From assembly GCA_048499675.1 (NCBI GenBank), contig JASNZL010000008.1:27-64026 (forward strand): 64,000 nt of DNA. Reading direction: 5' to 3'. The notes below the pieces were generated by a model, which made no database searches, was not told the origin of the DNA, and saw nothing but the letters and a program-made list of their open reading frames with translations. This stretch comes from Candidatus Zambryskiibacteriota bacterium (GTDB lineage: Bacteria > Patescibacteriota > Minisyncoccia > Phycocordibacterales > WO2-35-19). The position numbers and the translations under genes were made by a program. Shown here in pieces: positions 243-64,000 of this stretch. Position 1 is the stretch's first letter. Each line of letters opens with the position of its first letter.

Positions 243-887
243 TTACTTGGTGACAAGCCAAGCTCGCGACCAGATACGATAGATCTGAAAGTAGTTGTTC
301 TCGACCATGAATCCGAAGCACAATTCTTCCTGTGCGAAGTTGCCATCACCGCCGAACAAACCGTTCAGTTTGCTGCCGCCGAAGCCAGTGCCGTACTTCT
401 TACGCTCGTTCTCCATAAAGCCCCACAGTGCGTCGGACATAGAAAGCGTCTGGTTTTTGAACGCAAGGTGTTCGATCTCGGTTATACCATCGAACATGTG
501 TCGAAGGGCGAACTTCGACACAATACGCATCTGTGCTAGATAGCCGTCGCGACCTGGACTCTCCGACTCCTGATAGAACACAGCGTAATCGTACCTTTCG
601 CGCTGATGCCACCGCGGGCGAACACCGGTGATGCTCATGAGAGCATCGAAGTCTGCACGTGGCACACTGTTGCCGAAGTGTAGAAATCCACCAATTTCAT
701 CCTGCGGCGGTGCCGACTTGAACGGATCAATCATTCCTCCCTGATATCCATACACGCCGTTTCCATGCGGCGCGAACTTAGTCAGATCGGCAGGGTTGAC
801 ACCCGTCTTATTGTTTGCAAATAGGGCGGGCGACACACTGAGTGCGCCGTTGACTCCCTCAAAAACTAATTGTACTGGTTTGCTCAC
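243..887 (-). CDS. hypothetical protein in a high-GC (~55-60% by eye) islet at the window edge; no family recognised
   Basis: 214-aa ORF with strongly different base composition from the flanking AT-rich DNA; no conserved motif recognised by eye. Confidence 0.4.
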   Translation of the reverse strand: MSKPVQLVFEGVNGALSVSPALFANNKTGVNPADLTKFAPHGNGVYGYQGGMIDPFKSAPPQDEIGGFLHFGNSVPRADFDALMSITGVRPRWHQRERYDYAVFYQESESPGRDGYLAQMRIVSKFALRHMFDGITEIEHLAFKNQTLSMSDALWGFMENERKKYGTGFGGSKLNGLFGGDGNFAQEELCFGFMVENNYFQIYRIWSRAWLVTK

Positions 888-4669: not shown

Positions 4670-4745
4670 GCACGCGTAGCTCAGTTGGTAGAGCGCCGAG
4701 CTTATACCTCGGTGGCCGTAGGTTCGAGTCCTACCGCGTGCACCA
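4670..4745 (+). tRNA. tRNA-Ile, anticodon UAU (reads AUA)
   Basis: cloverleaf by hand: acceptor GCACGCG/CGCGTGC, D-arm GCTCAGTTGGTAGAGC, anticodon stem CCGAG/CTCGG with loop CTTATAC, T-arm GTAGGTTCGAGTCCTAC, encoded CCA. Confidence 0.75.
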
Positions 4746-6091: not shown

Positions 6092-6277
6092 TTATAGATT
6101 GTTTAGAAAACGTCCTCGATCTTTATTTTTCATAGTTATAGATCCAGCGCGACGCTTCTTCAATGTTGTATTTGTTCTATTTTTTGCATTAAAGTGGTTT
6201 TGACCAATTTTTCTAGTCACCAATTTACCGTTTTTAGTTACTTTAATACGCTTTGCGAATGATTTGTTCGTTTTCAT
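6092..6277 (-). CDS. rpmI: 50S ribosomal protein L35
   Basis: 61-aa basic protein MKTNKSFAKRIKVTKNGKLVTRK, positioned rpmI-rplT downstream of infC. Confidence 0.85.
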   Translation of the reverse strand: MKTNKSFAKRIKVTKNGKLVTRKIGQNHFNAKNRTNTTLKKRRAGSITMKNKDRGRFLNNL

Positions 6278-6373
6278 TTTAATGGTTATTACCTATGATT
6301 CTAGTTCTAAGAGAATAAAGGAAACAAAGGCTATTCTACACGAATTTGTTTTTATGTCAAATATAAATTGAGA

Positions 6374-6868
6374 TTATTTAGCTTTTTCTATAACAGCTGT
6401 CATTCCCTTTGGGCTCTTTTTTGGCTCTTCTGCAACCTTATATTCTATGGTTACCAACTTCAAAATTCTATCCATTCTTTCTTTTAAGAAGGTTTCGTTC
6501 ATATATTTGGTTCTTCCGGGGAGAAAGAGGTCTATCTTTACTCTATGACCCTCCTTGAGCCATTCTGAAGCTTTTTTGGCTTTAAGATTGAGGTCGTGCT
6601 CTCCTGTGCCCAATTTTACCTGAACTGACTTTACTTCAGTTGTATGAGCTTTTGCTTTAATAGCTTTTTGTTTTTTGCTTTCGGTATAAAGAAACTTTCC
6701 ATAATCTACTATTTTTGCAATAGGGGGATTAGTGTTTGGAGATATAAGTACCAAATCAAGACCAGCTCCTTCTGCTTTTGTCATCGCCTCGTTAAAACTC
6801 ATAACTCCAAAATTTTCTCCTTCTGGACCTATAATCCTCAAGGTCTCCTCTCTAATATTATTGTTTAC
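6374..6868 (-). CDS. infC: translation initiation factor IF-3; true start uncertain, probably a non-ATG codon near NNNIREETLRIIGPEG
   Basis: IREETLRIIGPEGENFGVMSFNEAMTKAEGAGLDLVLISPNTNPPIAKIVDYGKF and the C-domain; gene order infC-rpmI-rplT. Confidence 0.85.
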   Translation of the reverse strand, partial: VNNNIREETLRIIGPEGENFGVMSFNEAMTKAEGAGLDLVLISPNTNPPIAKIVDYGKFLYTESKKQKAIKAKAHTTEVKSVQVKLGTGEHDLNLKAKKASEWLKEGHRVKIDLFLPGRTKYMNETFLKERMDRILKLVTIEYKVAEEPKKSPKGMTAVIEKAK

Positions 6869-11981: not shown

Positions 11982-12845
11982 ATGGAAGAAAATATGACAG
12001 CCAAAAAACTAGACCATGCAAGGCACGACTTAAAGCGAAGTTTGGGTCAAAATTTCTTGAAAGACCCAAAAATACTTAAAAAGATTGCCGATTTTGCCAA
12101 AATTGACAAAAAAGACACCATAATTGAAGTCGGTCCGGGAGAAGGGACACTCACAGAATTTTTGCTACAAAGAGCGGGCAAAGTTATAGTGATAGAAAAG
12201 GACGACAGAATGGTAGAATTCTTACACCACAAATTCCAACGCCAAATTTTACTGGGCAAGTTACAAATCATTTCTGGTGATGTTTTGAAAATTGAAAATT
12301 TATTAAAAATTGCAAAATTGAAAATTGAAAATTTTATTTTAATCGGTAACATCCCTTACTATATAACCGGAGCATTGTTTAGAAAAATTTTTGAATTAGA
12401 AAATTTACCAAAATCTTTAACTTTTGTAGTCCAAAAAGAAGTTGCGGACAGAATAATGACGAGGTCTGCACACCAAGGGGGAGGGGGGAGTAAAGAAAGT
12501 ATTTTGAGTATTTCGCTCAAAGTATATGGAACACCAAAATATGGAGGAGTAATCAAAGCTGGAAGTTTCTTCCCAAAACCAAAAGTTGATTCGGCAATTA
12601 TTTCAATTGAGAATATTAGTCGGAAAAATCTAAAAAGAGGAGATGAGGAAAGATTTTTTGAAATTTTAAAAGCTGGATTTGCTCACAAAAGAAAGCTGCT
12701 CATAAAAAACCTTGAAAAAATAAGCACGAAACCAAATTTAGAAAAAGTTTTTGACACATTAAAGATACCAAAAAACACAAGGGCTGAGGACTTGAAAGTA
12801 GAGAATTGGCTTCAAATAGCAAAAAAACTTACATATACGAAGTAA
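11982..12845 (+). CDS. rsmA: 16S rRNA (adenine1518/1519-N6) dimethyltransferase KsgA/RsmA, with a short in-frame low-complexity insertion (KIENLLKIAKLKIENF)
   Basis: LGQNFLKDPKIL, EVGPGEGTLT, IGNIPYYITGALF motifs. Confidence 0.9.
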   Translation: MEENMTAKKLDHARHDLKRSLGQNFLKDPKILKKIADFAKIDKKDTIIEVGPGEGTLTEFLLQRAGKVIVIEKDDRMVEFLHHKFQRQILLGKLQIISGDVLKIENLLKIAKLKIENFILIGNIPYYITGALFRKIFELENLPKSLTFVVQKEVADRIMTRSAHQGGGGSKESILSISLKVYGTPKYGGVIKAGSFFPKPKVDSAIISIENISRKNLKRGDEERFFEILKAGFAHKRKLLIKNLEKISTKPNLEKVFDTLKIPKNTRAEDLKVENWLQIAKKLTYTK

Positions 12846-13010
12846 CGAATTGGTTACGAATAGATACGAACAAGAAACGAGGTACGAAGTAGAATTAATC
12901 TAATTACACTAATTAACCTAATTATTCTAAATAATGACTAATTCTCAGTCCTAAATTTAAAATTGGGCATTGAGATTTATTTAGATTAATTAGAAATTAG
13001 AGTAATTACT

Positions 13011-13100
13011 TGTCCCGCGTAGTTTTAACGAAGTGGGACTTGTCCCGCGTAGTTTTAACGAAGTGGGACTTGTCCCGCGCAACTTCAGTGAAGTGGGAGA
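13011..13100. repeat. 3 x 30-bp perfect/near-perfect tandem repeats, each an internal hairpin (GTCCC...GGGAC), at the head of the secretion-like locus
   Basis: tgtcccgcgtagttttaacgaagtgggact repeated twice exactly, third copy tgtcccgcgcaacttcagtgaagtgggaga; no spacers. Confidence 0.8.
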
Positions 13101-33933: not shown

Positions 33934-35331
33934 ATGAACAATCAAAAAACAAATATTTTTTCCGATAAGGAAGTTGAAGAATTTTTTGATCCCGATGGTG
34001 TTTTTGCCAATAAAATAAAGGCAAAAAAAGAAGGAAAATATAACAAAGACATAGTAATAAAATTTGGCGTTGACCCAACAAGACCAGATATTCATCTGGG
34101 ACACGCCGTTGTATTTAGGTTTTTGAGAAAAATGCAAGACATTGGTTGCAAGGTAATATTTTTGGTTGGTGATTTTACAGCGAGAATAGGTGACCCAACA
34201 GGTAAAAGCAAAGTTAGACCAGAAATAGAACAAGCTGAAATAGAAAAGAACATGAAAACTTATCTTGAACAAGTTGGCAAAATTCTTAGAACAGACAAGG
34301 AAGTATTTTCTTGGATTAGAAATTCAGATTGGTTTTATGGAGTAGAGGATATTGTTCCCGGAATAGGGGATAAAGTCACAATGAATGTTAAAAAAGCTGG
34401 AATTGCTTTTGATGCCGAAATACCAGCAAACAGTTTTATAGGAAAGGCGGCTCTTTTTGAAAACACAAGAATGCAGTCTTCTGTGCTATCAAGAAAACAA
34501 ATAGTATCAATAACCGTAAGGGGACTTCTTTGGACCTTGAGACACATTACACATCAAAGATTGATAAGTAGAGATATGTTTCAAGATAGACTCAAAAAAG
34601 GAGAGGAATTATATATGCATGAAATGCTTTATCCAGTACTCCAAGGTATAGATTCTTTTGTTTTGGCTCAAATATATGGCTCTTGCGATTTGGAAATTGG
34701 AGGCACTGACCAAACATTTAATATGTTGATTGGTAGAGATATTATGAAAATTAATGAGACTGCTCCTCAAGCGGTGATATCGTGCAAAATACTAAAAGGG
34801 TTGGATGGTAAAGAAAAAATGAGTAAAAGTTTGGATAACTATATCGCTATCAATGAAGAACCAACGGAAATATTTGGAAAAGTTATGTCGATCCCCGATG
34901 AGCTCATAGAAGAATATTATAGTTTATGCACAAATTTAGATGAGCAAGAAATAGATAGCAAAATCCAAGAAATAAAAAATGGTAAAAATCCAAAAGATAT
35001 AAAGGTTAATCTAGCCAAGGAGATTATAAAAGTTTATTATGGCAACAAAGAAGCAGAATCGTCCGCACTCTCTTTTGAAAACGTTTTTTCAAAGGGAAAA
35101 TTTCCAGAAGACTCAAAAATTATTGAAGCCGGAAAGGAGGAAAAAATATGTGATGTTTTGGTTTCAAACAAAATAGTCGCTTCAAAATCAGAATACAGAA
35201 GGTTGGTAGAAGGGGGAGCGGTTACTGATCTTCCAGATTACAAAATAGAAAATACTGACGAACTTATTGGGAACAAAGAAAGAAAATTACGAATAGGTAA
35301 GAAAATATTTGTAGTGGTTAAACCCGTTTAA
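33934..35331 (+). CDS. tyrS: tyrosyl-tRNA synthetase (class I; HIGH-like HLGH, KMSKS, C-terminal S4-like domain)
   Basis: GVDPTRPDIHLGHAVVF...VGDFTARIGDPTGKS, KMSKSLDN, C-terminal SEYRRLVEGGAV. Confidence 0.85.
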   Translation: MNNQKTNIFSDKEVEEFFDPDGVFANKIKAKKEGKYNKDIVIKFGVDPTRPDIHLGHAVVFRFLRKMQDIGCKVIFLVGDFTARIGDPTGKSKVRPEIEQAEIEKNMKTYLEQVGKILRTDKEVFSWIRNSDWFYGVEDIVPGIGDKVTMNVKKAGIAFDAEIPANSFIGKAALFENTRMQSSVLSRKQIVSITVRGLLWTLRHITHQRLISRDMFQDRLKKGEELYMHEMLYPVLQGIDSFVLAQIYGSCDLEIGGTDQTFNMLIGRDIMKINETAPQAVISCKILKGLDGKEKMSKSLDNYIAINEEPTEIFGKVMSIPDELIEEYYSLCTNLDEQEIDSKIQEIKNGKNPKDIKVNLAKEIIKVYYGNKEAESSALSFENVFSKGKFPEDSKIIEAGKEEKICDVLVSNKIVASKSEYRRLVEGGAVTDLPDYKIENTDELIGNKERKLRIGKKIFVVVKPV

Positions 35332-40261: not shown

Positions 40262-40918
40262 ATGAAAAAAGGGTTATTTCTGTCTGTTTTTTTGGCGCTT
40301 GTCCTCTTGGGCGGATGCCGGAAGACCCTCATTGTTCATGTCCCGGTTAGCCCGGGTATGAGCAAGACGGAGGTTGTGAAGGCCGAAAAAGAGGCGACCC
40401 GCCAGGCGGTCGCCGAGAAAAAGATGGAGGAACATGCCTCCAAAGCGGTGAGACAAATTGTCCGCCGTGCCACTCAACAAAACGAGTGGAAGCAAGAGTT
40501 CGCCCTCTCATGTCCCTACGGGGGCTACGAGAGGGTAATCATCCACCCCCACCTAGGAGACCAGTTCACTTATTGGAGGGGTGGGGGAGCCCAAAAAATC
40601 CTCATGCGCAGGGTGGTTATGGTGCATAGGGCGATGAACCCTTACACCAATCTCCCCTGCACCCTCCTCGAGGGTGGCCAGTTGGCGGTGAGCAATATGT
40701 GTCCGGGGGGGAGCATAACACTTGTCTCCTCCATTCCTCCCGTCGTTGGTGGCAGGGCACGGCAGGTAATCTGGACCGCCGAGGCCATGATTGAGGGCAG
40801 GCTCGCTCATAGCGAGTCGTCGCCAGGGATGATCTGGCAGGGGGACATGTGGTGGGAGGTTCAAATGAACCGCCCATCATGGATAATCGAATTCACTCGG
40901 GTGGATAAGGAATTCTGA
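40262..40918 (+). CDS. lipoprotein (lipobox LLGGC) encoded by a high-GC islet; unknown function
   Basis: MKKGLFLSVFLALVLLGGC; GC content visibly much higher than neighbours. Confidence 0.6.
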   Translation: MKKGLFLSVFLALVLLGGCRKTLIVHVPVSPGMSKTEVVKAEKEATRQAVAEKKMEEHASKAVRQIVRRATQQNEWKQEFALSCPYGGYERVIIHPHLGDQFTYWRGGGAQKILMRRVVMVHRAMNPYTNLPCTLLEGGQLAVSNMCPGGSITLVSSIPPVVGGRARQVIWTAEAMIEGRLAHSESSPGMIWQGDMWWEVQMNRPSWIIEFTRVDKEF

Positions 40919-55822: not shown

Positions 55823-56040
55823 AATTCTATTGTACAGGAACTAAGAAATGAGAGAAAGGTTTGTTGGTGTAATTTACTAAAATTGGTATTAACAAAATCT
55901 TACTATTGAAACATTTTTATAATATTTGGGTGAACAAAAAACTTTTATAAATTAGCATCCTGACAATAAATTCTGTTTCAATATATAAAAAAAGAGGGGG
56001 GGCGAGTTTCAAACACAACGCCCCCGCTCTGGGTGTACTA

Positions 56041-56553
56041 CTATTGAAGCATGAAATCCCTTTTTATGCTCCCCCTGGGAATGAAGAACTCGTACTTTTT
56101 TGTCGGATAGTCCAGACCAACCAGTAGTAAGTTTGGATTCACAAACTGGTAGGTGTAAGTCTTGAGTTCTCCCACCTTTCTTTCTTCATCTTCAAAAACC
56201 GTGACATTACCCTCAATTTCAATTTTCCTCGGCCGATAGCCCAACCCGACCGCTTCATAGAAGAAGTAGTGCTGGGTTGTGTCAATACTGCCGGTACCGA
56301 GGTAGAATTGCCCACTGAGACCATCGCTCCCACGTAGGCTCACTAGCCCTGTTGTTTCGGGTCCAGTCCAGTGTTTGGGCACCGCAAGACCAATGACTGA
56401 CGCGAAGCCGATGCCAAAAAAGAACACAATCGACGCGAAGATCCCAAAGAAAAATGTTGCAGCGCAACGGTCAAGGAAACCGTCTGCCTGTCCGTACATG
56501 TCCTTCCATGCAAAGACGACAAAAATCAAAACAAAAAGAAGTGGCCAAAGCAT
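56041..56553 (-). CDS. membrane protein, unknown; lies at the AT-rich to GC-rich transition
   Basis: two N-terminal TM helices. Confidence 0.45.
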   Translation of the reverse strand: MLWPLLFVLIFVVFAWKDMYGQADGFLDRCAATFFFGIFASIVFFFGIGFASVIGLAVPKHWTGPETTGLVSLRGSDGLSGQFYLGTGSIDTTQHYFFYEAVGLGYRPRKIEIEGNVTVFEDEERKVGELKTYTYQFVNPNLLLVGLDYPTKKYEFFIPRGSIKRDFMLQ

Positions 56554-56811
56554 ACTTTATCTCCTGTTTGGAAAGTTTTATATCGAGTTACGAGCGCTCG
56601 ATATTGGTCCTTAACCATAATAGCATACTACATATTAAAAGTCAATGTTTTATAAAATCATTAAATAGTGTCTTTTGGGCCACTATTTCTTCTTGGCTAA
56701 ATAATTTAGATACTTTTTACTCAGAAGAATCTAACTTATTTGTTATTGAGTCTTGGTATTAATTAATTATTACAACGCCGTGCCTCTCTGCTAGTAAAGC
56801 ACCTTGCTTGC

Positions 56812-57113
56812 TCGAGGGCACAAAATATTTTGTTTTTTGTGCCCTCGGTAGGAGTATTTCCCTCGACTCAAAATTTTTTCAGTCAAAAAATTTCGGTCTG
56901 GGCACCGGCTCATGGAAATTTATTTCTAAAAATTTCACATTCCGCCGTTCGATTTCTTACAGAAACTGTACACCTTTTCTATTTTTATTTCGCAAAACTC
57001 ATAAAAATTATCAAAGGTCTTGCGAAGCTTCAAACATTTGCTTCTCACCTACACGCAAGCAAAGCAGTTTGCTTGCTCGAGAGCACAAAATATTTTGTTT
57101 TTTGTGCCCCACT
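56812..57113. repeat. two 10-13-bp-stem hairpins (CGAGGGCACAAAA..TTTTGTGCCCTCG) bracketing a ~230-bp segment that contains the conserved element 56955-57050
   Basis: hairpins at 56812-56848 and 57077-57113; inner conserved block matches 46369-46464 (reverse complement). Confidence 0.6.
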
Positions 57114-57663
57114 CGGGTCTCGGACGTTGGTATACCAAGCAGTATAAGGGTTTTCGGGAGGATTCCCAAGAGTTGAGATGATGCCTCCGCATAGGGGTCA
57201 GTTTTCACCAAACAGGCGCTTGTGCCTTCAAAAACAGAATGAGACAAATGGGACACTCCTTCACGGGTATTTGGCAGTATCTCAAATGCCAACAAATGCC
57301 AATTTTCTGACACCAAAAAGTGACAAAAGTGACACTCTTTGGACACTTTTTCCGTGTCACTTTTTGCTAAAATCTGATGCGAGACAGAGACAGACGAGAC
57401 ACAGGTTAGAGGTATGCCACGAATGTCTCATCTGGAACCCAAATGGCTAAAAAAAAGGATATTTTACCGCCAATGTTACACCATGTGACACCAAAACAGA
57501 TGTGCATGTGTGTCACTTTTTCGTATTTGGTGGCTTTACAGCCACTTTTCCCGGCACTGCGTCGCTCTTGTGCTAAGTATGAAATTATTGTATTTTACGA
57601 CCTAGAGAGTGACGCCTGTCACAAAACCACAAACAGCACATTCACAAACGAAAGGAGACAGAG

Positions 57664-58809
57664 ATGGAAAAGCTCTTAAATCTTGAAGAACTCAGTAGCC
57701 GTCTCGCGACTGTCGACACGATGATCATGCAGCTCATCATGCGTCGCATGGAGCTCGCTGAGCAGGTTGGAAAATACAAACGCCAAAAGGGCGAGCGGAT
57801 TTTCCGGGCAGATATCGAAGATAGGCGTATCGATGCGATCAGGAAATGGGCTGCGACACACCACCTGAATCCGCATTTCGCCGAATCGGTCTTGTACGCA
57901 CTCATCAACGAGTCATGCAAGCTGCAAATGATCCGACTCCAAGAAGAGTCGCTGGAATCAAGTGAGCCTCAGACCGAAGACCAGTGGTATGAGAAGCTCA
58001 AGCGAAACCTTCTTATCCTCACCGAACGATGGTGCAGTACCTACGACTCAAGCTACGAAAACAGCTACTTCGCGACAAAGGCGTACCTGCGGTACGAGCA
58101 TGAACTGCTCACTCGAGAAATCCAACAATTGACTGATACAGAGCTCATGCTCGACCTTGGGTGCGCGACTGGCAGGATGACGTTCCAATGCCACGATGTG
58201 TTCAGGCGCGTCATGGGGTACGACATCAGCCAGCACATGCGGATGATGGCAAACCAGCTTGCTGAAAGCAAGAACTTACACTCGAAGGTCGCTTTCGAGT
58301 GCACGGACATTGAGGATGGCATCCCAATGCTCGATACTTCCGCATCGTTCGTCGTGATGAACCTTGGCACGGCCAGCGACATTCGGGGCATCGGTAAGGT
58401 GATAGATGAAACGCTTCGGGTGCTCAAGCCCGGAGGTCGATTCTTCTTCTCTTTCTACAATCGAGATGCTCTCGTTTATCGCTGGGAGTTCCTGCCGTGG
58501 GAAGCGGGGTTGGCCGCATCAATCAACATCCACCGCGACTCGCTCGACGTTCACTCGAAAAATGACGACCAGGTGGAGGAAGTCATTCCGGTCTACGCGC
58601 GAGCGTATACGTGGGACGAGGTAATGTCGCTATTCTCCGCTCGAGGAGTGGAGGTGTCGCTCACGACATATCCTACCATCAGCGCCATTCTCCCTCACGA
58701 GTTGTTTACCAAACAGCTCGACGTGCAAGAATCGGTCATCGCGATTGATAATGCGCTTGCTGATACTTCAATGGGTGCCTACATCATTGCGACAGGCGCA
58801 AAGCCTTGA
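57664..58809 (+). CDS. fusion protein: N-terminal AroQ-type chorismate mutase-like domain + C-terminal class I SAM-dependent methyltransferase domain
   Basis: N-terminus LEELSSRLATVDTMIMQLIMRRMELAEQVGKYKRQKGERIFRADIEDRRIDAI fits the AroQ pattern L..LR..ID.ID..L..LL..R..L...IG..K; later LDLGCATGRMT (motif I) and VLKPGGRFFF (post II). Confidence 0.6.
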   Translation: MEKLLNLEELSSRLATVDTMIMQLIMRRMELAEQVGKYKRQKGERIFRADIEDRRIDAIRKWAATHHLNPHFAESVLYALINESCKLQMIRLQEESLESSEPQTEDQWYEKLKRNLLILTERWCSTYDSSYENSYFATKAYLRYEHELLTREIQQLTDTELMLDLGCATGRMTFQCHDVFRRVMGYDISQHMRMMANQLAESKNLHSKVAFECTDIEDGIPMLDTSASFVVMNLGTASDIRGIGKVIDETLRVLKPGGRFFFSFYNRDALVYRWEFLPWEAGLAASINIHRDSLDVHSKNDDQVEEVIPVYARAYTWDEVMSLFSARGVEVSLTTYPTISAILPHELFTKQLDVQESVIAIDNALADTSMGAYIIATGAKP

Positions 58810-58831
58810 TGTCACGTTGGATAACACCTAC

Positions 58832-58862
58832 AACGCGCGAGCTTACCACTCGCGCGTTTTTC
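58832..58862 (+). terminator. rho-independent terminator
   Basis: AACGCGCGAGcttaccaCTCGCGCGTTTTT. Confidence 0.8.
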
Positions 58863-58989
58863 TATCGAATCAATTACATACAATTGACAAAGATAACCCC
58901 ACTGTGATAAATTACAGGTGTTGTTCATTTCAGTATATAAAACCCATATCCGATTCCCTTGAGTAATCAAGGGGTTGGGGTCGGATAGT

Positions 58990-59243
58990 TTTGCGGAGTA
59001 ATTCGCGAAACAGGGTGGTCTCTGCATAAGTGGAGACCCGGCTTCCTCCGTAACCATAGGAAAACCGAAATCGGTCGAAAGACCAGAGCCGGTATAAGTC
59101 CCGAGAGACATCAAGGGAAAAGTAAGGTGGCACCGCGGAAACCCGCCCTTACGATATGAGCAGTTTTGCTTGTATCGTGAGGGCGGTTTTTCATTGGGAA
59201 AAATCGCATAGTTCTTTCACATCAACCAAAGGAGAAATATCTC
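58990..59243 (+). promoter_or_regulatory. ~250-nt structured 5' leader with mutually exclusive antiterminator/terminator helices (riboswitch- or attenuator-like) upstream of the GNAT-like gene
   Basis: terminator ACCCGCCCTTACGATA...TATCGTGAGGGCGGTTTTT (59142-59191) overlaps alternative helix GTAAGG...CCCTTAC (59122-59152); several further local helices (GGTCTC..GAGACC; CCCGGCT..AGCCGG). Confidence 0.4.
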
Positions 59244-59936
59244 ATGAAGCTCTCTGAATACGCAACTAAGAATCAACTTGTCACAAAGGCGGGCGTGTAT
59301 AGCGCCTACCACTTAATGCCTGAGCTACTTTCTAATGAGGTTAAAGACTATCTCTTTAACCTTGTCTATCCAGTTGCTCAAAACGCCTTCGGGCAACAGC
59401 ATTCTGAGGAGTTTGCTCACGATGTCAGAACGCATGTTCTTGACCATTCAAATATTTTGATTGTTCAAGACCATACTGGTGCGGTTATCGCATTTCGAGT
59501 CTGGGATATTCTCCACGGCATCGAAAGAGACATCGTCTATCTTGCTGGTATGTGTGTTACTTATGAATACCAGAAGATCGGTCTAGGAAAGGCGTTGATA
59601 CAGGCTGCAATCGATATTGCGCAAGTATCTCACCCGAATTTGGGCTATGTTGTACTACGTACCCAAAATTGGGCAATGCAGAAGAGTTTGTCTGCTATTG
59701 CTGCAGAATCTGGTGTGTACAAGAAGTTTGGCGACACCAACATTGATGAAGACATGCAAGCCGCCGTTAAGATAGTAGCGGATAAAATCAATGATTCCTG
59801 CATCGTGCCTTCTGAGCTTGTGTCGCGAAAAGTCTATGGCAGTAGCTTATATGGCTCGGCGCATAACTATCAGAACGGCTTCGTTGGGCTAGATGTCTCT
59901 AATGGTGATGCAGCTTACTGCGTTTGGCGACGATGA
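59244..59936 (+). CDS. GNAT-family acetyltransferase-like protein
   Basis: motif A-like YQKIGLGKALIQAAI; beta-strand HTGAVIAFRVWDI. Confidence 0.5.
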   Translation: MKLSEYATKNQLVTKAGVYSAYHLMPELLSNEVKDYLFNLVYPVAQNAFGQQHSEEFAHDVRTHVLDHSNILIVQDHTGAVIAFRVWDILHGIERDIVYLAGMCVTYEYQKIGLGKALIQAAIDIAQVSHPNLGYVVLRTQNWAMQKSLSAIAAESGVYKKFGDTNIDEDMQAAVKIVADKINDSCIVPSELVSRKVYGSSLYGSAHNYQNGFVGLDVSNGDAAYCVWRR

Positions 59937-60013
59937 GTCGATCACAAACTAGAGCCATTCTAAGAAACTCGGGTGGCTCTATTTTTTTACAGGGAAATAT
60001 ATATAATTTTACT

Positions 60014-60823
60014 ATGTTACAGAGCATTAAAAAAATACTTATTGTTGGCAGTACGCATGGACACGAAAGGATAGGTCTTGCTGTTATCGAAGAGTTAAAA
60101 AAACTAAATATACCGAACGATCAACTCCGTTTTGAAATTGGCAACCCGAGAGCTTCAGAGAAAAATATTCCCTTTATCGACTCAGATCTCAATCGCATCT
60201 TTCCTGGTAATCCGAATGGTACATACGAAGAACGGCTGGCATTTGAACTATTACCAAAGATCAGGGATGTTGATTTGGTGATAGACATTCACTCAACCAA
60301 TACCACTGATTTATCTGAAAACTCAATGCTTATCGTCACAAAATATGATACCGTCACCAGAGATATTGTTGGCACTATCAATCCTCCGAAAGTTTTGGTG
60401 ATGAAATATAAAAGTGATAGCGCCCTCATTTCGCAAGCACGAATTGGTGTGGCATTTGAGTATGGGAAAGACACGAGCGAATCCGTATTACAAGCTACCC
60501 TGTTCGACATTGCTGAAGTTTTGATTGCCTGCGGATTCATTTCTAGAAATCCATATACAACCACAAAACATAATGAACGTACTGACGCTTTTGAGGTATA
60601 CGATTCATATAAAAAAGACTTTCTCGGGAAGTTTACACTTGCACCCGAAATAAAAAATTTCCAATTAGTCACACAAGGTTCTTTTTTGGGCGTAACCGAT
60701 TCTGGCGTAGAAGTACTTGCAGATGAAAGTTTTGTCCCGATTCTGTTTGGAGAAAACAGATATACGGAAATATTGGGTTTTAAGGCAAAGAAAATAGCGC
60801 CACCCACGAAGGAATGGCGCTAG
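60014..60823 (+). CDS. succinylglutamate desuccinylase / aspartoacylase (AstE/AspA) family zinc hydrolase (start moved to internal ATG)
   Basis: ILIVGSTHGHERIG...DSDLNRIFPG...DLVIDIHS matches the family zinc-binding/catalytic motifs. Confidence 0.7.
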   Translation: MLQSIKKILIVGSTHGHERIGLAVIEELKKLNIPNDQLRFEIGNPRASEKNIPFIDSDLNRIFPGNPNGTYEERLAFELLPKIRDVDLVIDIHSTNTTDLSENSMLIVTKYDTVTRDIVGTINPPKVLVMKYKSDSALISQARIGVAFEYGKDTSESVLQATLFDIAEVLIACGFISRNPYTTTKHNERTDAFEVYDSYKKDFLGKFTLAPEIKNFQLVTQGSFLGVTDSGVEVLADESFVPILFGENRYTEILGFKAKKIAPPTKEWR

Positions 60824-60836
60824 GTTGTTTGCGTGA

Positions 60837-61799
60837 TCAAGAGACAATTCCCTTGATCGCTTGGAGCGTTTGGTGCTGGCTCTGTGGAAGCACATTGCCA
60901 ATCACGTTGTTGAGGACGGTCACTACGCCTTGCGGCTTGGAACCAATCGGATTCACGATGAGAACCATACCTTTGGCAAAGTGCCTGGTGCTGATGCTAA
61001 ACGCATTAGACCGAAACACACTGCCGACGAGCTTGTGGATACCGTCCGGCGTATACCAGTGAGACAGGAAGAAGCCGCTTCTCCCTTCAGTCTGCCCAAC
61101 AATCTGGAGCGCCGCGATGGACGGTATTGCGCCGGAAGAGATTTCTCGCTGCATTGCGGCAAGCGAGTCTCTCACTGCGATCTTCCTGATCTCCTCGCCC
61201 GAAGTTGAGATTTTGGCGCGGATGCCTGTCGATGTGGGCTCATTCGTTTCCGAAAGTTCTACCCAATCGAACAGGAATTCTTCGCCAAGGACCCTCTCGT
61301 TCCGAAGGTACTCATCGTACCCGCAGAAAGGATATCCGACTTGCGGATCGGCCTTGAAGAAAGCCTCGCAGTTGTAGACCCCGATAATGAGTCGTCTGGG
61401 CTTGCGCTCGATTTCTCTGCAAACGTGAGCGATCTCACCCGAAAGGAACACCATCTCCACACCGTCGTCTATGAACGACTTCAGTATGGAAGACTTGGCT
61501 CGATTGACTTGCTGTGGTGCCAGATCATTGAAGACTACTCGAGGAACGTATCCCCCTGTTCGAGAAAATGTATCCTCGAGAAGCATCTTTGGATCACGAC
61601 TCCCAACAGCGCCGCCGAGAGTGACTATATCCTCGCAATCGACTTCTCGATATGCATCAAGGACAGCGTCCATTTCTCCCTGGTTGTCTGTCGTCATTTC
61701 TTCGTTTTCGTACGTGGCTGCCTGGGCGTCCCAGAAGGCCTTTTGGCCTTCAACGGTAAGAGTTGGCTTGCGCCAACCATCTTCTCCTGACTTACTCAT
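60837..61799 (-). CDS. hypothetical protein, weak resemblance to a SAM-dependent methyltransferase fold
   Basis: IVTLGGAVGS...FNDL pattern only. Confidence 0.3.
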   Translation of the reverse strand: MSKSGEDGWRKPTLTVEGQKAFWDAQAATYENEEMTTDNQGEMDAVLDAYREVDCEDIVTLGGAVGSRDPKMLLEDTFSRTGGYVPRVVFNDLAPQQVNRAKSSILKSFIDDGVEMVFLSGEIAHVCREIERKPRRLIIGVYNCEAFFKADPQVGYPFCGYDEYLRNERVLGEEFLFDWVELSETNEPTSTGIRAKISTSGEEIRKIAVRDSLAAMQREISSGAIPSIAALQIVGQTEGRSGFFLSHWYTPDGIHKLVGSVFRSNAFSISTRHFAKGMVLIVNPIGSKPQGVVTVLNNVIGNVLPQSQHQTLQAIKGIVS

Positions 61800-61823
61800 C
61801 TGAACCTCCTGTGGTTTGAGTGT

Positions 61824-62300
61824 TTACTGATGTGTTTGAGAGATGTCCGCAATCGTTGCTCCGATGGCGTTCACCATTTCTTTAGAGCCGATCGCGATTG
61901 TCTTTCGCGGATCACCTGACCCGCAATAGATCAACTGCCGAGCCAAGAGAGCGTTATCCACGATATGTCGCTGGAAGAAGTCATGGAACGGACTCGCGTC
62001 TCCCGGGTTCAGCCCGATTTCTCGGGTGATTTCTGGGCCAGCAAACTTTACCGTTTTCCTTGATACGCCGAGGATGGCAGCGACTTTTGAGAAGTCGACC
62101 CGATTCATACCCGGTAGAATAGCGGCAATGAGGCCAATATTCTTCTGATCAAGGATCACAGTCTTAGCCATTGCGTCCCTCGGAATGTCCAAAGTTTGAA
62201 CGACATCGTCCATTGTGATCACAGGATCATGCTCCATCACCCTCGGAGAATACCCTGAATCTTTGAGTCTCCGTATGATTTTTTCTGTTGACGTTTCCAT
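61824..62300 (-). CDS. YbaK/ProX-type aminoacyl-tRNA trans-editing deacylase domain protein
   Basis: KTVILD, GLIAAILPGMNRVDFSKVAAILG, GLNPGDASPF match the YbaK/EbsC family. Confidence 0.7.
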   Translation of the reverse strand: METSTEKIIRRLKDSGYSPRVMEHDPVITMDDVVQTLDIPRDAMAKTVILDQKNIGLIAAILPGMNRVDFSKVAAILGVSRKTVKFAGPEITREIGLNPGDASPFHDFFQRHIVDNALLARQLIYCGSGDPRKTIAIGSKEMVNAIGATIADISQTHQ

Positions 62301-62400
62301 AGTGCCTCTTTTGGTTTGTGAAGGTGCGTTTTAAGAAAACCCACAATGGATTCCTCGCCGACGATACCATAGCACAATTTTCCGCTTGACACAAGAGACA
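62301..62400 (-). promoter_or_regulatory. promoter/5' leader of the ybaK-like gene; paralogous copy of the trpS leader
   Basis: ~80% identity over ~100 nt with 63458-63570; candidate -35 TTGTGT / -10 TATGGT and a GAGGAA...TTTCTT dyad. Confidence 0.5.
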
Positions 62401-62464
62401 CTACAAAAGAAAACAGGCATTCGGAACCTTGCGATTTCGAATGCCTGTGAGTAAGTAGCTTGTT

Positions 62465-63457
62465 CTAGTAGAGGACGATACCCATCTTCTCCCGAACAAG
62501 CTCGGTGGTTGCCTTGATTCTGGCGCGAGCCTTTTTGCCGCCTTCGTGAAGCACGTTTTTGACGTAATCGTTTTGGCTGGCGAGCTTGACGCGCTTTTCC
62601 TGAAAGGGCTCCAAGATTTTGGCAATGCCGTCAACCAAAAGATGCTTGCAGGCGGCACAGCCGATTTGCGCCGAGATGCACAGTTTCGCGATCTCTCGAC
62701 TCTCGACCTCGCCTTCCGTCACTAGCTCGTGGACAGGATAGACGGATTGACACCGATTGTACGGATCGCCGGGGTCGGAGACGCGAAGACGTTGCGGATC
62801 AGTAATGCCTTTCTTCAGATAGCGATCGCGAATTTCTTCGATGCCGGCATTGATGTCGATGGCATTGTCCGCTTCCGACTTGCCCATCTTCGCGCCGTCA
62901 AGACCGGGTACCTTGATCATCTGCGCCATCATCTCGGGAACGACGAACGTGTCCCCAAAACGCTTGTTGAAACGATTCGCAAGATTGCGAGCCATCTCAA
63001 CGTTCGGCACCTGATCCTCACCAACTGGCACCAGTGTTGCCTTGGGACCAAGAATGTCGGCTGCCATGAGGACAGGGTACGTCACGAGCCCGAGGTTCAC
63101 GTTGTCCGGATTCTTGCGAACCAGATCCTTGAACGTTGGGACCCGTTCGAGCTCACCGAGTGACTGGATCATCGAAAGATACAGGCACAGTTCAGAGATT
63201 TCCGGTACGCTTGATTGAGCGTAAATGATCGATTGCTCCGGGTCGAGACCCGCGGCAATGTAATCCTTCACGATTTCAATCAAATTGCCCCGAAGCTCTT
63301 CTGGATTCTCGAGCGTCGTCAGTGTATGCCAGTCGGCGATGAAGTAAAGGCAGGTATTGCCTGGTTGCTGGAACTTCACGAAGTTTTGTACCGCTCCGAG
63401 AAAGTTTCCGAAGTGGAGGCGCCCTGTAGCGCGGATTCCTGATAGGACTGTTTCCAT
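62465..63457 (-). CDS. trpS: tryptophanyl-tRNA synthetase (class I). The start is placed at the ATG preceded by AAGGAG; the ORF-track start lies further upstream.
   Basis: GRLHFGNFLGAV (HIGH-type), KMGKS (KMSKS), GEDQVPNVE, overall length 331 aa typical of bacterial TrpRS. Confidence 0.9.
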   Translation of the reverse strand: METVLSGIRATGRLHFGNFLGAVQNFVKFQQPGNTCLYFIADWHTLTTLENPEELRGNLIEIVKDYIAAGLDPEQSIIYAQSSVPEISELCLYLSMIQSLGELERVPTFKDLVRKNPDNVNLGLVTYPVLMAADILGPKATLVPVGEDQVPNVEMARNLANRFNKRFGDTFVVPEMMAQMIKVPGLDGAKMGKSEADNAIDINAGIEEIRDRYLKKGITDPQRLRVSDPGDPYNRCQSVYPVHELVTEGEVESREIAKLCISAQIGCAACKHLLVDGIAKILEPFQEKRVKLASQNDYVKNVLHEGGKKARARIKATTELVREKMGIVLY

Positions 63458-63570
63458 CTTTGTCTCCTTTGGTTTGTGAATGAACTGTTTTGAGAAAGCC
63501 ACCATGGATTTCTCGCCGATGTTACCATAACACGATTTTCCGCTTAATACAAGGGTTTCGTCACGCAACC
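63458..63570 (-). promoter_or_regulatory. promoter/5' leader of trpS (copy 2 of the duplicated leader)
   Basis: candidate -35 TTGTAT, 17-nt spacer, -10 TATGGT; dyad CGAGAAATCCATGGTGGCTTTCTC; SD AAGGAG 8 nt before ATG. Confidence 0.5.
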
Positions 63571-64000
63571 ACACCACTCCGTAGAGTGGTGTGGTGTTTC
63601 GGCGGATAGGACTTCTGCCTCTCCTTGGAGATCGGAGCCTCTCGTCGCGTACGACGTTCCCGCCGGCCGGTTAGCCGGACTTTGCCCAATCATCTCACTC
63701 ATCTCCTGTGGCGTACCGCAGACGGGGTAAGTCAGAGGGCTCGCCGGCCGTCTGTACTTAATGATTAGTATTTAAGATTTGTGTAGTCGAGTTACCAACA
63801 GCTTGCCAACTACCCCTCCTGGACTCCTCGGAGGGGTAGCGTCATCAATGTAGCTGCATGACACACACAACAACAGCGCCGTCTGGGGCTACGGCAAACA
63901 TTGCAAGCTCCGCAAGCGTGAAATATTGTCTCTACGCCAGAAAAAGTACCGAACAGGAGGACAAGCAGGTGCTTTCCATCGACTCCCAGATCAAGGAAAT

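Follow-up and report, generated by a model that had tools for sequence, protein, structure and literature searches.

What is a tryptophanyl-tRNA synthetase (TrpRS) doing beside a YbaK-type deacylase and a chorismate mutase fusion, in a high-GC segment of an otherwise low-GC genome from the candidate phyla radiation (CPR, or Patescibacteria)? The question is raised by the end of the window, as we call the whole 64,000-nucleotide (nt) stretch of contig JASNZL010000008.1 analyzed here. With their tiny genomes, CPR bacteria are believed to rely on other cells for their amino acids. Positions 55.9–64.0 kb of the window are most of a ∼9 kb genomic island in such a genome, and the content of this island suggests a role in tryptophan supply or quality control rather more than one in antibiotic self-resistance. 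On balance, we lean toward reading it as a mobile tryptophan-charging and supply module. Its genes appear to form four transcription units: TrpRS; the YbaK-type deacylase with a 320-residue enzyme of S-adenosylmethionine (SAM)-methyltransferase fold; a chorismate mutase::methyltransferase fusion (CM::MT); and a GNAT acyltransferase with an AstE-type amidohydrolase, led by a T-box riboswitch.

57,631–57,663, plus strand: third copy of a 5' untranslated region (5'UTR) with its ribosome-binding site, CATTCACAAACGAAAGGAGACA (detected as inverted repeats I1 and I2; alignment)
57,664–58,809, plus strand: CM::MT, AroQ-type chorismate mutase joined to a class I SAM methyltransferase, 381 residues
58,832–58,858, plus strand: terminator-like hairpin after CM::MT
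58,884–58,913, plus strand: promoter-like site of the T-box transcript: TTGACA, 18 nt, TG, TAAATT
58,937–59,190, plus strand: Trp-specific T-box leader (Rfam RF00230)
59,244–59,936, plus strand: GNAT N-acyltransferase, 230 residues, the first gene under the T-box
59,933–60,823, plus strand: AstE/AspA-family zinc amidohydrolase, 296 residues (Pfam 60.8 bits; aspartoacylase model 68 bits)
60,795–60,822, no strand assigned: hairpin between the convergent AstE and 320-residue protein genes
60,837–61,799, minus strand: 320-residue protein of a small family, modeled with a class I SAM-methyltransferase fold
61,824–62,300, minus strand: YbaK/ProX-type aminoacyl-tRNA deacylase, 158 residues (Pfam tRNA_edit 62 bits)
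62,303–62,395, minus strand: promoter and 5'UTR copy upstream of YbaK (direct repeat D1)
62,465–63,457, minus strand: bacterial-type TrpRS, 330 residues, starting METVLSG (TIGR00233 256 bits, cut-off 177)
63,461–63,553, minus strand: promoter and 5'UTR copy upstream of TrpRS (extended -10 promoter, hairpin, CATTCACAAACCAAAGGAG box)
63,858–64,000, plus strand: 5' end of a large serine recombinase gene (gene calls on contig L001; NCBIfam CcrB model, E 5e-35)

Every gene that an initial annotation of the segment had named (CM::MT, GNAT, AstE/AspA, a methyltransferase-like protein, YbaK and TrpRS) is present; it had missed the T-box leader and the recombinase, whose first 143 nt are positions 63,858–64,000. 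Compositional analysis bears out the high-GC terminal segment that it had described, with GC rising from ∼0.34 to 0.42–0.55 at 56 kb. In 1-kb windows GC is mostly 0.27–0.41 before 56 kb and 0.41–0.53 in 56–64 kb, and 300-nt windows place the step at ∼55.95–56.1 kb. Codon usage differs as well: G+C content at third codon positions (GC3) averages 0.305 (standard deviation 0.086) over the 51 open reading frames (ORFs) outside the island, compared with 0.35–0.66 for the island genes (a 170-residue membrane protein 0.54, CM::MT 0.66, GNAT 0.45, AstE 0.35, the 320-residue protein 0.59, YbaK 0.55, TrpRS 0.64, the recombinase 0.52).

A step this sharp could also mark an assembly chimera, the DNA of two organisms joined at ∼56 kb, as the initial annotation had allowed. 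The independent Logan contig L001 (10,563 nt, run SRR21762701), found via the YbaK protein, does break at a repeat, at 57,049. Against a chimera, L001 is 100% identical to the window over all 6,952 common bases (57,049–64,000), runs 3.6 kb past the window end and returns to low-GC DNA beyond the recombinase, so that on the extended sequence the high-GC block spans ∼55.9–65.3 kb with low-GC DNA on both flanks. A second contig, L030, comes from a different run (SRR33243636) and joins the host DUF2207 gene (98.5% identity) to island DNA (99.96%); host and island are thus contiguous in another sample, and island content is variable. By exact-sequence look-up, moreover, one NCBI contig of 69,120 nt carries the island genes together with the tyrosyl-tRNA synthetase (TyrRS) of the window and a near-identical form of its penicillin-binding protein, and a true island would be expected to have a recombinase beside a tRNA gene. 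These contigs refute the chimera, to which we assign next to no probability. The segment is foreign, as had been proposed, by its composition, by the recombinase and tRNA at its edge and by a deletion polymorphism in another sample.

The regulatory element that links the island to tryptophan is the T-box leader, placed between the promoter-like site and the GNAT gene. RF00230 matches positions 58,937–59,153 with 29.4 bits (E 9e-5 in a 501-nt search). The specifier UGG (58,976–58,978) has a G after it, and GGUGGCACCGCG, the T-box sequence (59,126–59,137), includes the UGGC bulge at 59,128–59,131, which matches the G73-CCA end of bacterial tRNA-Trp. The near-consensus T-box sequence AAGGUGGCACCGCG precedes a terminator and U run, namely a 20-bp hairpin (59,143–59,186) followed by UUUUU; the 5' arm of this hairpin overlaps the antiterminator in its 3' half. 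A simple motif search yielded 12 homologous leaders in related loci. In the resulting alignment of 13, UUGGG is invariant and sits between two covarying helices, which identifies the specifier as UGG plus a purine, and 43 of the 64 predicted pairs show compensatory changes. In T-boxes generally, a purine after the specifier codon is the standard arrangement (PMC7583486). Nine leaders have UGGC as the bulge and the other four UGGU; either form suits the G73 of neighboring tRNA-Trp genes, and the T-box database records the same C/U pattern among Trp T-boxes, in which G73 can be read by a G:U wobble (PMC7778990).

Stem I is short throughout: in all 13 leaders the helix above the specifier loop has 6–7 bp and a small loop, with no distal platform, and ∼90 positions of the Stem I model are replaced by 65 nt. 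This accounts for scores below the Rfam gathering score of 93 (29.4 bits in the window, 27–40 in relatives). Sequence, covariation and context together identify the leader as a Trp-specific T-box, and its strong terminator indicates transcriptional control. Uncharged tRNA-Trp would allow the antiterminator to form and GNAT-AstE to be transcribed, implying induction under tryptophan shortage.

More than 20 loci in Patescibacteria are built from these same components. When species-representative genomes were scanned, 21 close TrpRS loci emerged, most of them labeled as metagenome-assembled genomes of the Patescibacteria group. Neighbors were counted within 8 kb of TrpRS in 22 genome loci by tblastn, ORF clustering and Pfam; further loci beyond these 22 are L003, L006 and L032–L035.

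14 of 22 loci: CM::MT fusion, usually the gene next to TrpRS
13 of 22 loci: AstE/AspA-type protein
8 of 22 loci: tRNA-Trp(CCA)
6 of 22 loci: GCS2-like protein
6 of 22 loci: second, divergent TrpRS
4 of 22 loci: ELFV-type amino-acid dehydrogenase with a class I/II aminotransferase
4 of 22 loci: YbaK and the 320-residue protein, in the same four loci counting a remnant
4 of 22 loci: TrpD-like (Glycos_transf_3) protein

The CM::MT homolog lies directly downstream of TrpRS in nine loci. What follows the Trp T-box varies: GCS2-like then AstE genes in six loci, dehydrogenase then aminotransferase genes in three, and, in one locus each, a phosphatase-like then a TrpD-like gene, a TrpD-like gene alone, and a gene for a PEP-utilising-type enzyme (judged by eye from the sequence); in the window it is GNAT then AstE. 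Because the same leader precedes a dehydrogenase and aminotransferase or a TrpD-like gene in relatives, the T-box cargo most likely raises tryptophan supply. Partner identities are far below those of TrpRS (CM::MT 33–81%, AstE 29–62%), so the window island is a mosaic and not a recent copy of any one relative. The tRNA-Trp genes were also considered as part of the mobile unit, but the neighboring copies are diverse and look lineage-specific.

A sparser explanation is xenologous replacement, in which the island TrpRS is the sole essential TrpRS, acquired by transfer, and its neighbors are unrelated passengers. No other TrpRS is present in the 67.6 kb of this genome examined, most related loci have only this TrpRS within 8 kb, and [4Fe-4S] TrpRS enzymes, the class discussed below, are known in organisms with one or several TrpRS genes (PMC2954223). 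Simple replacement does not account for the partners that recur here: CM fusions (14 of 22), AstE (13 of 22), Trp T-boxes and YbaK do so across lineages whose shared host proteins are 33–63% identical to those of the window. Moreover, the TrpRS, YbaK and CM::MT units share a duplicated 5'UTR, the first two also the promoter region upstream of it. The recurrent partners and the duplicated 5'UTR argue for a functional unit, and we consider simple replacement distinctly improbable.

The initial annotation had pointed to paralogous ∼100-nt leaders, and these are real: 62,303–62,395 and 63,461–63,553 share 93 nt at 78% identity, and a third, partial copy upstream of CM::MT matches over 40 nt at 90%. 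The copies have no Rfam family at E<=5. A box, (A/T)AGTTC(A/T)TTCACAAAC(C/G)AAAGGAG, stands just before the start codons of TrpRS (63,461–63,500), YbaK (62,303–62,340) and CM::MT (57,631–57,663), with a looser form at 59,210–59,240 after the T-box terminator. It is kept upstream of TrpRS in L003, L008, L009, L010, L026 and L033, often after a covarying hairpin.

The TrpRS itself is the only one in the window, in agreement with the initial annotation; the motifs of the other class Ic match (33,934–35,331), which had been a candidate second TrpRS near 34.5 kb, identify it as a TyrRS. The best PDB match of the TrpRS is the Thermotoga maritima enzyme 2G36 (E 4e-76), and the four cluster cysteines align. 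The corresponding C-x23-C-x6-C-x2-C motif, in the anticodon-binding domain, is present in every full-length member of the clade and absent from the second TrpRS of L013, L014, L016 and L028. The motif, C-x(21–24)-C-x6-C-x2-C in its general form, assigns the enzyme to the [4Fe-4S] class, with a predicted cluster. In genomes with more than one TrpRS gene, the [4Fe-4S] motif is confined to a single copy (PMC2954223). An archaeal-type TrpRS-A (Mukai et al.) was ruled out, since the enzyme is bacterial-type and the nearby tRNA-Trp has G73.

Relatives of this TrpRS number in the thousands. The best 120 are 72–100% identical, and those among them with a named lineage are all CPR (Liptonbacteria, Azambacteria, Staskawiczbacteria, Parcubacteria). 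Identity is 60–95% among 20 loci, and the few shared host proteins are 33–63% identical to those of the window. Within the same genome pairs, this TrpRS is 74–83% identical, versus 32–60% for the second TrpRS; between the window and L003, TrpRS is 95% identical, AstE 43% and L20, IF3 and SmpB 56–63%. Four-fold degenerate sites are only 46–58% identical between the closest TrpRS genes, which means that transfers were not very recent and that purifying selection is very strong. The clade behaves, apparently, as a transferable one. Two relatives are worth recording separately. In L026 (8,001–8,985) the conserved TrpRS is split by a frameshift and the 320-residue protein gene is reduced to its last 46 codons; an island of this type in decay would look so, as would a fault in assembly. 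In L010 (6,036–7,439) the second TrpRS (∼50% identical) has a ∼130-residue N-terminal extension rich in cysteine pairs.

Among the partner enzymes, CM::MT matches the Pfam families CM_2 (60.7 bits, cut-off 27) and Methyltransf_25 (58.8 bits). R28, K39, E52, S84 and Q88 align with the active site of 1ECM, and the first three are nearly invariant in the fusion family, which comprises 142 cluster representatives at E<1e-30. The R11 of Escherichia coli chorismate mutase aligns with a serine, and an arginine lies two residues later. A reading as a CmoA-like carboxy-SAM synthase, supplied by the mutase domain of the same protein, was also considered, and NCBIfam gave no specific CmoA signal. The closest homologs of the window GNAT are mostly 330-residue CM_2::GNAT fusions in tight TrpRS, CM::GNAT and AstE operons; a chorismate-mutase domain beside this TrpRS therefore appears to be the constant, fused to a methyltransferase or an acetyltransferase. 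The GNAT model (predicted local distance difference test, pLDDT, 92.9) matches generic amino-group acetyltransferases, and its near folds include the tabtoxin resistance protein, a putative phosphinothricin acetyltransferase and Mpr1.

The AstE start overlaps the GNAT stop codon (ATGA), and the gene is also called in L001. The protein has the zinc-site motifs HG-x-E and DxHS; THGHE, NRIFPG and DIHS align with the solved homolog 2QJ8 (Mlr6093), after which aspartoacylases are the next-best solved matches. The hairpin at 60,795–60,822 is probably a two-way terminator. On the other strand, the 320-residue protein has no Pfam or PDB sequence match and only 77 relatives among 5.8 billion proteins. 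Its model (pLDDT 93.5) has the class I SAM-methyltransferase fold with an extra C-terminal sheet domain, and in each of the four loci with an intact copy of its gene, that gene adjoins the one for YbaK. An assignment as azetidine-2-carboxylate synthase was not adopted: AzeJ and VioH top both fold searches, only marginally above ordinary methyltransferases, and the extra sheet domain sets the model apart. We keep this modeled likeness as a lead only. The YbaK-type protein retains the lysine of the KT motif (AKTVIL aligns with VKTLIV of APE2540) and falls outside the Cys-tRNA(Pro) deacylase equivalog (31 bits versus a cut-off of 153). One Trp locus, L016, holds two YbaK-type paralogs (6,219–6,707 and 12,582–13,049). 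Judged by their motifs (the AstE zinc site, the YbaK KT, the chorismate mutase residues and the four TrpRS cysteines), the enzymes look intact.

Several of these features also suit a self-resistance or immunity cassette, in which an extra TrpRS, insensitive to an inhibitor or analogue, would protect the cell, a Trp-like or other amino-acid analogue would be the product of the methyltransferases, GNAT and AstE or be detoxified by them, and the YbaK-type protein would clear tRNA mischarged with it. The element is mobile; a second, divergent TrpRS stands beside the conserved one in six of the 22 loci; the fold neighbors of the GNAT named above acetylate toxic amino-acid analogues; the 320-residue protein, with AzeJ and VioH as its top folds, is always beside a ProX/YbaK-type deacylase; and relatives add an aminotransferase and a dehydrogenase. 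The initial annotation had proposed a resistant synthetase of this kind. The auxiliary role survives as plausible, given the second TrpRS in six of 22 loci, whereas nothing specific was found for an indolmycin-type inhibitor or for analogue biosynthesis. Induction by uncharged tRNA-Trp is the wrong signal for a pathway that consumes tryptophan, and no transporter, nonribosomal peptide synthetase, polyketide synthase, exporter or recognizable biosynthetic core is found among the island genes. The module also stands in core-like contexts in most relatives. The sequence, read by eye, keeps in TrpRS the histidine that matches His43 of the Bacillus enzyme, which is a site of indolmycin resistance mutations. 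With the T-box on a dehydrogenase and aminotransferase or a TrpD-like gene in relatives, tryptophan acquisition fits better than toxin production, and we regard self-resistance as unlikely.

In the favored reading, a mobile tryptophan-charging and supply module, TrpRS and the deacylase would keep tRNA-Trp charged, and correctly charged, when tryptophan is scarce, with the YbaK-type protein as candidate editor. The AstE-like enzyme is a candidate to release tryptophan from an N-acyl conjugate, and the T-box-driven enzymes of relatives could make tryptophan from indolepyruvate or related precursors. Several points weigh against this reading. An acyltransferase and a deacylase in one T-box operon have no obvious Trp-making logic, and TrpRS is not itself under the T-box. 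Chorismate mutase would divert chorismate from tryptophan and is hard to fit to tryptophan supply; CPR bacteria, besides, are generally considered to lack the shikimate pathway. As to transfer, the GC of the TrpRS gene is at least the locus average in 20 of 21 loci, most strongly in the window (0.54 versus ∼0.34), and this excess could partly reflect constraint. An alternative to a salvage kit is a CPR-specific pathway acting on tryptophan or on Trp-tRNA(Trp) itself and spreading between lineages as a cassette. It could be a reversible N-acylation or methylation of the amino acid or the charged tRNA, or a first dedicated trans-editing system for tRNA-Trp; we hold such a pathway to be possible but improbable.

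Mobility is inscribed in the right edge. The recombinase is CcrB-like, with 442 residues and Resolvase, Recombinase and Zn-ribbon domains (CcrB is the best NCBIfam model), and ends at ∼65,186 on the extended sequence. Past it, L001 continues with a degenerate copy of the 3' part of a tRNA-Arg, an intact tRNA-Arg(GCG) and low-GC DNA (0.27–0.37 GC) that encodes a short-chain dehydrogenase and a RelB/ParE pair. We infer that this recombinase, beside tRNA-Arg(GCG), moved the island in. L026 is laid out alike, with tRNA genes followed by a serine recombinase (36% identical) and, divergently transcribed, a TrpRS of this type. An empty site was not found; L030 shows two internal deletions, not a clean absence. 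In L001 (2,148–2,345, extended ∼65,267–65,464) the intact tRNA-Arg(GCG) lies between two apparent remnants, one of the 5' part and one of the 3' part, of another tRNA-Arg(GCG) that has degenerated, and this split copy may be the scar of integration events. A phage origin was rejected, as IMG/VR holds no close TrpRS relative and GenBank phages reach <=42% identity; an anti-phage defense system was likewise rejected, PADLOC giving one generic methyltransferase match only.

The left end is more intricate, with a repeat pair and a membrane protein gene that the initial annotation had missed.

55,877–56,834, no strand assigned: left-end segment absent from L030 (blastn of L030 against the window, junction sequences)
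56,041–56,553, minus strand: high-GC gene for the 170-residue membrane protein (GC3 as given above)
56,790–56,844, plus strand: 55-nt direct repeat, copy 1, with the palindrome CGAGGGCACAAAA...TTTTGTGCCCTCG (repeat search)
56,835–56,960, no strand assigned: conserved non-coding element, ∼125 nt (91% identical over 69 nt to L017 and L039)
57,055–57,109, plus strand: 55-nt direct repeat, copy 2, 91% identical to copy 1; L001 ends here

Relative to the window, L030 has two deletions, 55,877–56,834 and 56,950–59,760, the latter bounded by CGCCGTT microhomology. The left island boundary is within or at the edge of the first of these segments, where a G+C-rich hairpin followed by a T run can be read from the sequence at ∼55,995–56,030. 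The membrane protein has no Pfam or NCBIfam match. Both 55-nt repeats contain the palindrome, with 13-nt arms, and their 11-mer CTCGAGGGCAC recurs at the far end of the island, where it closes the degenerate tRNA-Arg copy (extended ∼65,267). L030 keeps exactly the 56,835–56,960 piece. In L017 and L039, from a distant Patescibacterium, the 69-nt match lies 2.4 kb upstream of the TrpRS module and beside tRNA-Tyr, and a 22-nt core occurs in four other metagenome contigs. The minus strand of the element folds to -40 kcal/mol, with no Rfam match at E<=5; a small RNA and a site of recombination are both conceivable. Upstream of CM::MT, ∼0.4 kb of non-coding DNA (57,250–57,640) is rich in GTGACA(C) and TGTCAC repeats, and its ORFs have no family matches. 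The small ORFs of 56.4–57.7 kb, considered as excisionase or regulator, are likewise without family matches.

In the host part of the window, the tmRNA (1,436–1,841, with a tag peptide like that of L003) and tRNA-Ile(TAT) (4,670–4,745) fit a Patescibacteria host. Two genes there look foreign, with GC3 of 0.68 (40,262–40,918, plus strand) and 0.61 (243–887, minus strand) against the mean of 0.305; the product of the first looks like a lipoprotein, and neither product has a Pfam family.

Taken together, the leaders suggest that CPR bacteria use T-box riboswitches that read tRNA-Trp. The varied enzymes under this control would be direct candidates for how CPR cells obtain the scarcest amino acid, and the repeated chorismate mutase–transferase fusions beside TrpRS are a clear lead to new biochemistry. 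One TrpRS type has been preserved with hardly any change and seems to have passed between lineages that diverged deeply, in some cases with a second TrpRS next to it. The T-box, TrpRS, deacylases and transferases are all open to in vitro study without growing the organism.

Each component is of a known kind: the T-box, the Fe-S TrpRS, the serine-recombinase island and the YbaK-type deacylase. Three features appear, from the comparisons made here, to be new variants. The first is a short-Stem-I, transcription-controlling Trp T-box in CPR bacteria, with unusual regulated genes; a search of the open-access literature and preprints found no papers on T-box riboswitches in the candidate phyla radiation. 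Like the Firmicutes Trp T-boxes (RF00230, upstream of trpS and trp operons), it has a UGG specifier followed by a purine, a UGGN bulge, an antiterminator competing with a terminator and, downstream of Stem I, conserved stretches at the position of Stem II and IIA/B. It differs in its short Stem I, low score and CPR host, and in controlling GNAT-AstE, GCS2-like-AstE, dehydrogenase-aminotransferase or TrpD-like genes instead of trpS or trpEDCFBA. The short-Stem-I T-boxes of actinobacterial ileS (PMC7583486) share the truncated Stem I and a conserved region where Stem II and the IIA/B pseudoknot would lie. Those leaders act on translation and can have an apical specifier, whereas here the specifier is in a side bulge and the terminator is intrinsic.

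The second variant is a near-invariant, apparently transferred TrpRS clade, sometimes accompanied by a second TrpRS. The four cysteines align with those of the T. maritima [4Fe-4S] TrpRS (2G36) in a C-x22/23-C-x6-C-x2-C pattern, and the rule that only one copy carries the motif (PMC2954223) also holds in four of five loci with a full-length second TrpRS. What sets the clade apart from the T. maritima enzyme is its unusual uniformity (60–95%) across diverse Patescibacteria and its place on a mobile element; cluster binding is a prediction here. The TrpRS-A/ORF1/tRNA-Trp(A73) operons of Microgenomates (Mukai et al. 2017, PMC5370408) offer a parallel in their extra TrpRS, Trp-linked organization and lateral transfer within CPR; among the open-access papers and preprints searched, theirs is the one account of a CPR TrpRS. 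Those operons have an archaeal-type enzyme, an A73 tRNA-Trp and the partner ORF1, in contrast to the TIGR00233 enzyme, G73 and other partners seen here.

Auxiliary TrpRS genes are also familiar from Streptomyces coelicolor (TrpRS1, indolmycin resistance) and Deinococcus radiodurans (TrpRS II). The presence of a second TrpRS in several related genomes makes a similarly specialized copy possible. Here there is no link to a known inhibitor pathway and no resistance substitution was identified, the nearby regulation senses the charging of tRNA-Trp, and the partner genes are others. The third variant is formed by the chorismate mutase fusions tied to this TrpRS.

The vehicle recalls the Ccr-type serine-recombinase islands (SCCmec): a recombinase with Resolvase, Recombinase and Zn-ribbon domains stands at the island edge, the composition of the cargo is unlike that of the host, and variant content occurs in another sample. 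It differs from them in being small (∼9 kb), in adjoining a tRNA gene and in carrying translation and amino-acid genes as cargo.

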